Shown: in pieces, positions 2,721-6,217 of the stretch | Position numbering within the stretch: the first letter of the stretch is position 1 | Layout of the letters: each line of letters starts with the position of its first letter | From: Escherichia coli | GTDB taxonomy: Bacteria; Pseudomonadota; Gammaproteobacteria; Enterobacterales; Enterobacteriaceae | Length of the DNA stretch: 6,464 nt | Strand: one strand, 5' to 3' | NCBI RefSeq assembly: GCF_003334255.1 | Contig: NZ_QOWU01000101.1 | Notes under the pieces: model-generated | Databases searched by the model: none | What the model was told of the DNA's origin: nothing | The model's input: the letters and a program-made list of their open reading frames with translations, nothing else | Position numbers and translations under genes: made by a program

Positions 2721-2788
2721 CCAACAATATTCATGCCGGATTTCTTCCGGATGTTCGAGGGTAAAGTTCGGTATCAGATGAGGTGAGT

Positions 2789-3826
2789 ATGGCTAATGCC
2801 TGGCTCAGATTGTGGCATGACATGCCAAATGATCCCAAATGGCGAACCATTGCCAGGGTCTCAGGACAGCCAATCGCAACAGTGATGGCGGTGTATATCC
2901 ACCTTCTGGTGAGTGCGTCACGAAATGTCACGACATGTCACGGCGTGTCACTACGTGGTCACATTGATGTCACGACGGAAGATTTAGCAAGTGCGCTTGA
3001 TGTGACGGAAGACGTAATTGATTCAATTTTGCATGCAATGCAGGGGCGGGTTCTGGATGGTGACCTTATTTCCGGATGGGAAAAACGTCAGGTGCTGAAA
3101 GAGGACAATGGTAACGTTTCGCAAACGGCAAAATCCCCGGCAGAGCGCAAGAGAGCGCAGCGGGAGCGCGAAAAGCTGCGGAAATATGATGCTGATTGTC
3201 ACGATGAGTCACGACGTGTCACGCATCTGTCACGACAAGTCACGACAGATAAAGATACAGATACAGAATTAAACCCCACACATAACGCGCGCATGCGCGA
3301 GAGTGCTCCAACCGGTGAGTCGCATGGTGCGCCGTTGCAGACAGCCGAACCTGAATACCTGGACGGCCTGAGCGAACCGATCGGGAAATTTTCGATGACT
3401 ACTGTCTGGCAGCCGTCGTCGGATTTTCGACAACGGGCAGCAGTGTGGGGTATGGCTCTGCCTGAGCCGGAATTTACACCTGCTGAGCTTGCCGCATTCC
3501 GGGATTACTGGATGGCGGAGGGGAAGGTTTTCACACAGGTTCAGTGGGAGCAGAAATTTGCCCGCCACGTGCAGCACGTCAGGACACAGGTAAAACCAGT
3601 CAGCAAGGGGGTAAGCCATGCAGCATCAGGTGGCACGGCATCACGGGCAGTTCAGGAAATCCGGGCAGCACGCGAACAGTGGGAACGAGACAACGGATTT
3701 ATCAGCAACGGAAATGGCCTGGAAGCTGTGGGAGCTTATGGGGGAGGTGTATTCGAACCGCTGGACTCAGAAGAACGGGGCCGCACCTTCGAAGCTCTGG
3801 ATTGCCCAGATTGGCACGATGACTGA
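2789..3826 (+). CDS. Phage replication initiator (lambda O-like, iteron-binding replisome organiser)
   Basis: Long ORF immediately upstream of the P-like gene. Two arrays of GTCACG iterons are embedded in its coding sequence, as in lambda O/ori. ATG 2789 is preceded by GAGG; the GTG at 2783 is an alternative start. Confidence 0.8.
   Translation: MANAWLRLWHDMPNDPKWRTIARVSGQPIATVMAVYIHLLVSASRNVTTCHGVSLRGHIDVTTEDLASALDVTEDVIDSILHAMQGRVLDGDLISGWEKRQVLKEDNGNVSQTAKSPAERKRAQREREKLRKYDADCHDESRRVTHLSRQVTTDKDTDTELNPTHNARMRESAPTGESHGAPLQTAEPEYLDGLSEPIGKFSMTTVWQPSSDFRQRAAVWGMALPEPEFTPAELAAFRDYWMAEGKVFTQVQWEQKFARHVQHVRTQVKPVSKGVSHAASGGTASRAVQEIRAAREQWERDNGFISNGNGLEAVGAYGGGVFEPLDSEERGRTFEALDCPDWHDD
2915..2978. 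repeat. Iteron array 1: six direct repeats of (t)GTCACGAc at 10-11 bp spacing
   Basis: GTCAC begins at 2917, 2927, 2937, 2947, 2958 and 2969, i.e. one helical turn apart. Confidence 0.7.
3196..3248. repeat. Iteron array 2: five direct repeats of (t)GTCACGAC at 10-11 bp spacing, followed by an AT-rich segment
   Basis: GTCAC begins at 3198, 3208, 3218, 3229 and 3239. The AT-rich stretch AGATAAAGATACAGATACAGAATTAAA (3247-3273) and the 12-bp palindrome CGCGCATGCGCG (3288-3299) follow. Confidence 0.7.
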
Positions 3827-4280
3827 ACAGCAAATCCGGCTGGTCTGCCGTCAGTGCATGGACCGCTGCCGGGCGGGTGAAACGTGGCCCCCAGACCTGG
3901 CTGAGTTTGTTGCACTGATTTCGGAGAGTGGGGCAAATCCATTTGGTCTTACGGTGGATGCAGTGATGGAAGAGTACCGGCGCTGGCGCAATGAATCCTG
4001 GCGATACGACGGGAGTGATAAATACCCGTGGCCACAGCCTGTGCTGTACCACATCTGCCTCGAAATGCGTACCAGAGGGATTGAGCGCCAGATGACGCAG
4101 GGTGAGTTAAAACGACTTGCGGAACGGCAACTGACGAAATGGGCAAAGCATGTTGGTAACGGGATGAGTGTTCCGCCAGTGCGACGACAACTGGAAGGGG
4201 CGAAACACCCGCAAGGGCCAACGCCAATTGAACGGCTGAAACAGGAATACGAACGCCGGAAGGCAGCTGGTTTTATTTGA
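3714..4280 (+). CDS. Replication protein P-like (DnaB helicase loader); start ambiguous
   Basis: The C-terminal two thirds resemble lambda P as recalled (YPW motif; PPDLAEFVAL versus PSPGQFVAW; TMTEQQ versus TTMEQV). The P-like frame is open back to 3618. Candidate starts: ATG 3618 (SD AAGGGGG, giving 220 aa), ATG 3714, ATG 3738, and ATG 3819 (ATGACTGA overlap with the O stop). The stop is at 4278-4280. Confidence 0.75.
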   Translation: MAWKLWELMGEVYSNRWTQKNGAAPSKLWIAQIGTMTEQQIRLVCRQCMDRCRAGETWPPDLAEFVALISESGANPFGLTVDAVMEEYRRWRNESWRYDGSDKYPWPQPVLYHICLEMRTRGIERQMTQGELKRLAERQLTKWAKHVGNGMSVPPVRRQLEGAKHPQGPTPIERLKQEYERRKAAGFI

Positions 4281-4313
4281 GTCTGAGAAACGATTTTGTC
4301 GGAGGAAATTTTA

Positions 4314-5030
4314 ATGGAAACCGTATTTGACGCACTGAAAGCACTGAAAAGAGCCTCTTCACAGGTAGTGGCGGCCCGCCTTGGAATCAGCCGTGAAGAT
4401 GCGGTCAACGAACTGTGGAAACTGAAGCGCCGCGGTGAAGCGGATAACAAGGGTTCGATGTGGTGGCTGATTCAGGCTGGTGAAAGTGAACCGGTGTCAC
4501 CGGTACCGAAAGTGACAGCGCAAATGCTGACTGAGGCGATTGAACAACATGGCCCACAAACGGCGGATGAGCTGGCACTGATGTTCGGGATTACCTCCCG
4601 CCGGGCGAATTCATCGCTGGCCATGGCAATCAGCAAAGGGCGTCTGATTCGCGTGAATCAGGGTGGTAAATTTCGTTACTGCATACCGGGCGCTGATTTA
4701 CCGGCAGAGCCGGAAGCTGCATCCGTAGCGGAAACCGATGGTAAAGCCTTTCCTCAGCCAGCAGGTGTTGCGTTACCAGTACAGGAAATGATGGCACAGG
4801 AAGAAATGAAAACAGAAATCGTGGAAGACATTGTGAGGTTACAGCCATCGATCACCGAAATGAAAGCAGATGACCTGATTCTACCATCGCTGCATGTGGC
4901 TAACCGCGAGCTGCGCCGGGCGAAAAGTGATGTCCAGAAGTGGGAGCGAGTCTGTGCTGCGCTGCGGGAACTGAACAAACACAGGGATATTCTCCGGGAT
5001 ATTACCGCCACCAGAGAGCAGCAGCGGTGA
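4314..5030 (+). CDS. Phage protein with two predicted winged-helix domains and a C-terminal coiled coil, 238 aa; function unknown
   Basis: GGAGGA at 4301-4306 with ATG at 4314; the track's 4296 start is a TTG. Two HTH-like segments ([18 protein letters not shown] and [24 protein letters not shown]). Its stop overlaps the next gene's GTG (GTGA). Confidence 0.7.
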
Positions 5031-5344: not shown

Positions 5345-5643
5345 GGGTGAGGATTTATATCGCCGGTCCGATGACGGGATATGAAAATTTCAACCGCGAG
5401 GCGTTTCACAGGGCGGAAGATGCGCTGAAACGGGAAGGGCATACCGTTTTAAACCCGGCAGTACTTCCGGACGGGCTGACTCAACCACACTACATGGATA
5501 TTTGCATGGCAATGCTCCGTTGCGTGGATGCGGTTTACATGCTGAAAGGCTGGCAGCAGTCGGCAGGTGCAAGGGCTGAGCTGGCACTGGCGGAGAAACT
5601 GGGCCATGCGGTGATTTTTCAGGAGGTGGGCAGTGAATATTGA
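5341..5643 (+). CDS. DUF4406 protein, nucleoside 2-deoxyribosyltransferase-like fold, 100 aa
   Basis: N-terminal RIYIAGPMTGY and the later SAGARAELALA glutamate motif are typical of the NDT/Rcl-like fold. AGGAGGG at 5327-5333 precedes GTG 5341, which overlaps the upstream TGA. GTG 5347 is an alternative start. Confidence 0.75.
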   Translation: MRVRIYIAGPMTGYENFNREAFHRAEDALKREGHTVLNPAVLPDGLTQPHYMDICMAMLRCVDAVYMLKGWQQSAGARAELALAEKLGHAVIFQEVGSEY

Positions 5644-5872
5644 CCCGGCGATAACGATTGATATGGCCCTGAACACCGGCCTGGCACTTCTTGGTTATTT
5701 CTACATCATGTTCTGCAGCGGACGATGGCTGTCACTGTTGTTCATGAAAAAATGGAATAAACGCCGTAAGCAGGAGCAACGCCAGAAGGCAATGGATGCA
5801 TTTTCGAAGCCTTCGGAATTGACGGCATGGAACCAGGGGATCCAGCTCGCGCAATCAGCAGAGGGGGTGTAG
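5633..5872 (+). CDS. Small predicted membrane protein (one TM helix followed by a basic stretch), 69-79 aa
   Basis: Hydrophobic segment ALNTGLALLGYFYIMF followed by KKWNKRRKQEQRQK. GTG 5633 overlaps the DUF4406 stop by 11 bp; ATG 5663 is an alternative start. Confidence 0.45.
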   Translation: MNIDPAITIDMALNTGLALLGYFYIMFCSGRWLSLLFMKKWNKRRKQEQRQKAMDAFSKPSELTAWNQGIQLAQSAEGV

Positions 5873-5902
5873 TAATCCTTGTATATCGGAGTGAAGAGAA
5901 AA

Positions 5903-6217
5903 ATGACGATCACAAAACAACGAGTAGAAAAAATCATATATCGCCATGAAATGGGACTGAACAGCGATGTCACTGCCGAAGAGGTTTATGACCTGGCTGT
6001 ACTGGCGCTGAATTTATCAAATATCGCAAACCTGAAGCGATACGAGCTTGATATGGATGGTTGCGACTCGTGCGGTCAGGATTGTGGCGCAGATATGACT
6101 GAAGATCCTGATGGTGATTATGTCCTGTTTGATGACGTGGTTAAGTTGTTTGAATTTGATACAACCACTCAAAAGTTAGAAATCCCGGCAAAGGAGGCAG
6201 CCAGTGAGCAAGATTGA
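5903..6217 (+). CDS. Hypothetical acidic protein with a CDSCGQDC cysteine cluster, 104 aa
   Basis: ATG 5903 lies downstream of GGAG at 5888-5891; the track's 5879 start is a TTG. The C-terminal half is strongly acidic (DMDGCDSCGQDCGADMTEDPDGDYVLFDD). The stop overlaps the next gene's start region. Confidence 0.6.
   Translation: MTITKQRVEKIIYRHEMGLNSDVTAEEVYDLAVLALNLSNIANLKRYELDMDGCDSCGQDCGADMTEDPDGDYVLFDDVVKLFEFDTTTQKLEIPAKEAASEQD

Follow-up and report, generated by a model that had tools for sequence, protein, structure and literature searches.

Long same-strand, out-of-frame overlaps between phage genes are exemplified by lambda Rz/Rz1. The replication genes of lambda, O (38686-39585) for the initiator and P (39582-40283) for the helicase loader, overlap by 4 nt. 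Structurally, lambda P comprises a disordered N-terminal lasso (domain I, residues 1-29), compact domains II (~30-119) and III (~120-192), and a C-terminal lasso (PMC12661323). The DNA analysed here, a window of 6,464 nucleotides from Escherichia coli (assembly GCF_003334255.1, contig NZ_QOWU01000101.1), covers the part of a lambdoid prophage that holds its immunity and replication genes and contains an O-like initiator gene followed by a P-like loader gene. Translation of the P-like loader very probably begins at ATG 3618, well inside the O-like gene, by means of a Shine-Dalgarno (SD) site of its own, with coding extending upstream to that codon. The same 209 nt would then be read in two frames, serving O for its final 70 codons and P for its initial 69. 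As a variant of the lambdoid O-P module, the arrangement is conserved and largely mis-annotated, and literature searches found no published description of such an O/P overlap.

The locus shares several traits with its lambda counterpart. In the early right operon, cro-like and YdaT-like genes are followed by the initiator and then by the loader, and the P-like protein is laid out like domains I-IV of lambda P, with a disordered N-terminus, compact domains and a C-terminal segment, its C-terminal two thirds being homologous (PMC12661323). Unlike lambda, the initiator carries a DnaT-type domain and not the lambda O C-terminal domain, and the two genes share 209 nt out of frame, compared with 4 nt; the initial annotation of this stretch, made from the sequence alone, was right in putting the lambda overlap at only a few nucleotides. 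The arrangement also differs from embedded accessory genes in being a terminal overlap: two essential replication genes lie side by side, and cooperation of their products is expected. It resembles overprinted gene pairs generally, in which two frames are used and one protein is conserved or ordered where the other is variable or disordered (PMC8227390). The features on which the argument turns are the following.

2789-3826, + strand: O-like replication initiator, open from GTG 2783, stop codon TGA at 3824-3826, with a DnaT-type C-terminal domain
3618-4280, + strand: P-like helicase loader in the full extent proposed, 220 aa followed by the stop codon (4278-4280); the N-terminal peptide as read from ATG 3618 is MQHQVARHHGQFRK...
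3605-3611, + strand: candidate SD sequence AAGGGGG for P, inside the O coding sequence, 6 nt before ATG 3618
3618-3826, + strand: proposed dual-coding overlap of 209 nt, the last 70 O codons and the first 69 P codons, with P in the +1 frame relative to O
3618-3737, + strand: part A of the overlap, encoding in O the conserved, predicted tail helix SRAVQEIRAAREQWER (nt 3644-3691) and in P the variable, predicted disordered residues 1-23 and the start of helix 24-45
3738-3823, + strand: part B of the overlap, encoding in P the conserved block MGEVYSNRWTQKNGAAPSKLWIAQIG, with predicted head-domain helices, and in O an acidic tail with no predicted structure

The P frame is closed by a TAA stop at 3612-3614, opens with ATG 3618 and remains open to 4278-4280, confirming from the sequence the earlier observation that a P-like frame runs from this ATG past the O stop. 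In-frame starts inside the overlap are ATG 3618, GTG 3630, ATG 3714, ATG 3738, GTG 3747 and ATG 3819. The SD site, which the initial annotation had also judged to be good, forms a predicted duplex of -11.7 kcal/mol with the 16S rRNA 3' end, the strongest of all starts tested; the values for the others are -6.9 at the O start (2789), -6.5 at 3738, where the spacing is too short, and -3.1 at 3819. The chance of finding 69 open codons in one sequence is p ~0.046, taking the frequency of +1-frame stops, 0.044 per codon, from 24 O-like genes outside their overlaps. This value is weak by itself, and the case therefore rests on comparison with relatives.

Close relatives are abundant. Over 3300-4300 (1001 bases compared) the window is 100% identical to E. 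coli JE86-ST05, and the P-like gene region was matched in 1253 of 5426 complete E. coli genomes. An alignment of 58 distinct sequences, 85-100% identical over 3270-4280, preserves ATG 3618 and an intact O frame in all 58, an open P frame in 57 and the exact SD AAGGGGG in 56, with ATG 3714 present in four. A first scan of viral contigs had yielded only sequences of at least 90% identity, which were used for the substitution analysis and not for deep comparison. Observed variants were classed against all possible single changes, with counts taken per site, and diversity at codon positions 1, 2 and 3, respectively, was as follows.

O-only region, 3270-3617, O frame: 0.087 / 0.075 / 0.149
P-only region, 3827-4277, P frame: 0.037 / 0.021 / 0.156
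Overlap part B, 3738-3823, P frame: 0.003 / 0.001 / 0.110
Overlap part A, 3618-3737, O frame: 0.060 / 0.003 / 0.088

In part B, variation is confined almost entirely to the wobble position of P, and the wobble position of O is frozen, with a diversity of 0.001. Variants that are synonymous in O and non-synonymous in P amount to 1/55 there, compared with 63/237 O-synonymous variants in the O-only region (approximate p = 7e-6), and P-synonymous variants (15/49) occur at the rate of the P-only region (111/316). The pattern in part A is different in kind. Variants changing both proteins number 4/174, as against 10/63 for P-silent changes (approximate p = 4e-4) and 15/88 for O-silent changes (approximate p = 3.5e-5), a depletion of double-altering changes of ~7-fold that indicates purifying selection on both frames in this segment. 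Taken over the alignment, these substitution patterns point to purifying selection on the P frame across the whole overlap and on the O frame in its first 120 nt (3618-3737). Constraint on O alone, which the initial annotation had named as an outcome that would speak against dual coding, is not what was found. All three forward frames happen to be open across the overlap, the third running from 3544 to 3822 (+ strand, 92 aa from GTG). That open reading frame (ORF) is probably a product of chance and is not open in other loci; its third codon position is the most constrained position of the overlap, being position 2 in O and position 1 in P.

The wider comparison comprised 27 loci of the P type from ~20 genera, of which 4 were reached via distant proteins, 21 came from contigs taken at one genome per species, and 2 belong to Vibrio phages. 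The P ORF begins with an ATG 31-42 codons before the conserved block in 27/27 loci, and GGAGG, GAGGT or AGGGGG stands 5-9 nt before this ATG in 25 of them; the corresponding site of the Vibrio phages is AGGTGA in one and weak in the other. Overlap between initiator and P spans 113-224 nt, always in the same relative frame, with a median of 212 nt over the 25 enterobacterial loci and the window. Both the O and the P frame are conserved as open across relatives, in keeping with a dual-coding gene pair. Lambda-type P loci recovered in the same scan (L115-L121, L125) overlap O by only 4-17 nt.

Protein alignments lead to the same start. Homologues of 210-223 aa share a start position with ATG 3618, and among homologues down to 44% identity M41, R48, W49, K52, N53, G54, P57 and W61 are invariant or nearly so. 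Addition of the two Vibrio phage proteins (22-26% identity; 30 sequences in all) leaves W38, K52, N53, G54 and W61 invariant and M41, W49 and P57 nearly invariant, all of them encoded upstream of 3819. The position of M68, the codon at 3819, is occupied by Leu in many homologues. Translated searches (tblastn) of the phage collection returned Vibrio phage matches beginning at query residue 34 or 37, and the Pfam P match starts at residue 58, ten residues before M68. One locus (L091) separates the two frames directly: its initiator ends after a 113 nt overlap, before the conserved P block, and the block is still conserved, so that P-frame conservation is not a by-product of O coding. The P-like ORFs of the two Vibrio phages (L123 1399-2058 in Vibrio phage D77 and L126 1390-2022 in Vibrio phage 1.214.O) encode 210-220 aa; their similarity to the window protein is limited to query residues 34-131, and the C-terminal halves differ.

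An AlphaFold2 model of the 220-aa P protein was built on a 30-sequence alignment (mean pLDDT 80.5). Residues 1-23 are disordered in the model (pLDDT < 50) and are followed by helices at 24-45, 47-53, 59-66, 70-85 and 94-103 and then by C-terminal helices. Residues 24-105 make up one compact helical domain, with block-mean pLDDT values of 84-91 over residues 31-100. M41 lies inside helix 24-45, and M68 falls between helices 59-66 and 70-85. On our reading of the model, a protein begun at 3819 would lack three of the five helices of the domain-II equivalent and one begun at 3738 would start inside the first; the predicted head domain needs residues that the overlap encodes. The modelled O tail is helical over tail residues 46-61 and lacks secondary structure from there on, the conserved segment SRAVQ-I-RAAR being predicted helical and giving way to a variable acidic stretch. 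Conservation accordingly see-saws from column to column, with O the better conserved protein opposite P residues 8-19 and P leading from residue 34. Since the first P helix starts at 3687 and the O helix ends at 3691, the ordered parts barely share DNA, and along the overlap predicted order in one protein faces predicted disorder in the other, in clean alternation. A likeness of the O tail motif 'LD..DW' to the lambda O C-terminus was considered and dropped, the motif being fully set by the conserved LWIAQIG codons of P.

The initial annotation had left open two arrangements, an out-of-frame overlap of roughly 110-210 bp or a P start at 3819 coupled to the end of O. The former is favoured by the conserved block, the upstream ATG and SD, and the variants. 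The latter envisages termination-reinitiation at the ATG within ATGACTGA, near the O stop TGA 3824-3826, as in lambda, with the upstream frame untranslated. It agrees with the RefSeq annotation in E. coli, its ATGA-type junction resembles the 4-nt lambda overlap, and detectable lambda-type P homology begins near residue 70. Such a start is nevertheless scarcely credible, and comparative data already contradict it. The Met is not conserved and is Leu in many genera, contrary to the expectation, also raised at the outset, that homologues would begin there if this start were correct, and conservation in P is highest over the 27 codons that precede it. Variation in 3738-3823 sits at P third positions, ATG 3819 has no SD site, and its use would remove three of five helices from a confidently predicted domain. 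In place of a lambda-type O/P junction, conserved P residues reach at least 31 codons upstream of the O stop. A start at ATG 3738 (M41), giving 180 aa and an 89-nt overlap, would attribute the openness further upstream to inheritance or chance. This codon is the RefSeq start in Salmonella, Citrobacter, Klebsiella, Brenneria and Pectobacterium, M41 is nearly invariant, GGGAG just upstream yields -6.5 kcal/mol, and P residues 1-30 are poorly conserved. We nonetheless regard it as an improbable main start: W38 is invariant and an A/W-x-x-W motif before M41 is conserved where O-frame residues vary, M41 lies within a predicted helix and is Leu in Vibrio phage D77, and GGGAG, whose presence the W-E codons explain, is separated from the ATG by just 2-3 nt. 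Conservation of an upstream ATG with a strong SD in 25/27 loci likewise speaks for the longer protein, as does selection on the P frame in part A, where changes non-synonymous in both frames are rare (4/174) relative to P-synonymous ones (10/63); 31-42 open codons would arise by chance with a probability of only ~0.17-0.25 per lineage.

A further possibility is that P is produced in a long and a short form, the 220-aa protein begun at 3618 being accompanied by an internal product of ATG 3738 or 3819 that serves a distinct function, for instance in regulation. This would add to initiation at 3618 and not compete with it. ATG 3738 and ATG 3819 are both conserved in 58/58 E. coli-level sequences, but both are accounted for as Met residues within a conserved protein, ATG 3819 is conserved only among close relatives, and neither codon has a well-spaced SD; the production of such isoforms therefore seems unlikely, on balance.

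Several points weigh against initiation at 3618, which we infer from sequence. P residues 1-30 are poorly conserved, and coding there is backed by openness, by conservation of the ATG and SD, and by one codon-position test of 29 variants. The SD before the first ATG of Vibrio phage D77 is weak, the proteins in RefSeq are shorter, at 153 aa in E. coli and 180-181 aa in other genera, and the variants are phylogenetically non-independent, making the p-values approximate. As to the O frame, no sequence constraint was detected in 3738-3823, where the P-synonymous rate equals that of the P-only region; divergence at four-fold sites of P was 0.641 vs 0.649 in a test of this segment, giving no O-frame signal at sites near saturation. 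The O frame does stay open through 3738-3823 in ~23/27 loci, with 0.22 expected, and the O stop lies mostly 30-31 codons past the position of M41. Retention on this scale makes some pressure to keep the O tail through 3738-3823 likely.

Database annotations of P are mutually inconsistent. Two codons serve as its RefSeq start, depending on the genus.

3819-3821, + strand: ATG at which RefSeq begins P in E. coli (153 aa, WP_000139447.1); as the main start it is rejected in this analysis
3738-3740, + strand: ATG (M41) at which RefSeq begins P in the other genera named above (180-181 aa, beginning MGEI...), unlikely as the main start and possibly a minor internal one

By the evidence here, these starts would be 67 codons late in E. 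coli and 40 codons late in the other genera. Database forms of 216-223 aa correspond to the 3618 start, and a form of 220-221 aa is public as a predicted protein (P0001-P0004). Records of PPompW phages annotate P at 140 aa, and the annotated P ORF of Vibrio phage D77 starts (at 1732) 231 nt after homology begins. In all six RefSeq records checked, the protein lacks 67 N-terminal residues of P, about half of a predicted folded domain, and loaders expressed or modelled from the database sequence would accordingly be truncated. In Leclercia adecarboxylata NCTC13032 (L105 2441-2692), the P head (...AWHLWQVMG) runs by a frameshift into the reading frame of the O tail (...EPVDAEEWGRTFGALDSPDRFDD*), leaving P broken in that genome. 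A 333-aa protein with PF06992 and DUF1376 (P0106) and the family phrog_15931 (482 positions, with O and P matches) look like similar O-P fusion calls.

Assignment of the P-like protein to the lambda P-type helicase loaders is well supported by profiles. Pfam Phage_lambda_P (PF06992) matches residues 58-187 with model positions 31-161 of 162 (E 1.9e-15), and phrog_109, 'P-like helicase loader', matches residues 14-220 (E 2.4e-62); loading of DnaB is the predicted activity. Homology to the DnaB-contacting part of lambda P (domains III-IV) is evident at the sequence level. BLASTP aligns residues 85-192 with lambda P 94-202 and nothing further upstream, a profile built without lambda matches lambda P (8v9t) at 101-203 from query residue ~89 (E 1.6e-7), and hhalign pairs the P type with lambda-type P over 70-218 vs 83-230 at a probability of 100%. 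No sequence match of P residues 1-69 to the lambda-type head was found by BLASTP, a PDB profile search or hhalign, and the likeness to the N-terminal region of lambda P that the initial annotation had suggested for the overlap peptide finds no counterpart in these alignments. Given the limits of the hhalign match, the overlap-encoded part of P is the part without a detectable sequence relation to lambda-type P. A match of the overlap peptide to phrog_109 (E 4.6e-4) was not used as proof of lambda P homology, this family probably holding long forms of the subfamily, and a full-length PDB hit to lambda P was discarded as circular, lambda P having been in the query alignment.

Weaker support for that likeness comes from the mixed family phrog_109, whose alignment takes in residues 14-220, and from structure comparison, which allows for a more distant relation. 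The only significant PDB hits of the P model in Foldseek searches came from 9oa1, a complex of DnaB with lambda P, and were to its lambda P chains (E 1e-5), over 204-222 columns at TM 0.39-0.44 and rmsd 10-13 A, without a residue mapping; the low TM scores are attributable to flexibly linked domains. A fold-level likeness of the N-terminal head to lambda P is possible on the basis of the model, and the disordered N-terminus of P would be comparable in position to the N-terminal 'lasso' of lambda P.

Expression of P from within O would follow a simple scheme. Ribosomes on O have to cross the overlap to reach the O stop, and the conserved SD and ATG are what supports initiation of P. P would initiate at 3618 on the same early transcript as O, independently of O termination, and ribosomes translating O across the P start could tune the O:P ratio. 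A scan of 3300-4400 found no promoter-like sites and one terminator-like match, at 4255-4271, which is not above chance, and the fold of 3560-3680 shows no significant RNA structure hiding the P ribosome-binding site (z = -1.4); these results are consistent with a single early transcript for both genes. Because of the overlap, recombination would also be unable to part the O tail from the P head, and the two would form one unit that may move between initiator types.

The O tail, its last ~70 residues, is in fact common to initiators of at least five PHROG families, namely the lambda-O-like phrog_391/9773, phrog_1408/15931, phrog_1032, phrog_6451 (DUF1376 type) and phrog_270 (Vibrio phages), and the profiles of the initiator families stop short of it. 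The alternative initiator forms carry the RefSeq name 'DUF1376 domain-containing protein'. Among E. coli relatives, mosaic breakpoints lie at ~3249-3270 (467/488 in a reference spanning 2783-4280), upstream of the DnaT domain, the tail and P, and many relatives align only from there onward. The N-terminal half of the initiator, with its putative iterons, is thus exchanged independently of the DnaT domain, tail and P.

One tentative interpretation is that the overlap acts as a portable 'specificity cassette', encoding both sides of a putative initiator-loader contact, the O tail helix and acidic tail on one side and the P head on the other. We think this possible and rather doubtful. If correct, any initiator gaining the cassette would automatically be matched to its loader, since the parts recombine inseparably. 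It would explain why the same tail/head unit, over a range from Vibrio phages to Enterobacterales, stands behind initiators of five or more unrelated families, why breakpoints among E. coli-level relatives fall upstream of the unit, and why lambda-type P sequence homology begins where the overlap ends, at ~residue 70. More generally, the overlap may tie initiator tail to loader head, the two being co-inherited despite heavy lambdoid mosaicism. A long and deeply conserved out-of-frame overlap of two core replication genes in a double-stranded DNA phage, spanning Vibrio phages and enterobacterial prophages, would offer a natural system for asking how one sequence satisfies two proteins.

The surrounding genes run in the order repressor-like (minus strand), cro-like, YdaT-like, O-like initiator, P-like, DUF1627 and others. 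In RefSeq a DUF4752 gene at 5633-6217 is frameshifted and several genes downstream are partial, so that the prophage is partly decayed beyond its replication genes. The O-like protein is named 'DnaT-like ssDNA-binding domain-containing protein' by RefSeq, which places its start at ATG 2789; of the two candidate starts, this ATG has a better SD than GTG 2783 (-6.9 vs -3.0 kcal/mol). Residues 203-268 match the DnaT domain (Pfam PF17948, E 1.8e-16), and the protein matches the PHROG replication initiation families phrog_1408 and phrog_15931. Its NCBIfam DnaT score of 93 bits is under the 201-bit cutoff, marking the protein as a DnaT domain match and not a DnaT equivalog. The hexamer GTCACG, expected ~3 times in the whole window, occurs 10 times, a number reached in 0/200 shuffles, and 9 of the 10 copies fall within the 5' half of the O-like gene, in two + strand clusters with 10-nt spacing, at 2917, 2927, 2937 and 2969 (2916-2975) and at 3198, 3208, 3218, 3229 and 3239 (3197-3245). 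Their appearance is that of origin iterons, which in lambda too lie within the initiator gene.

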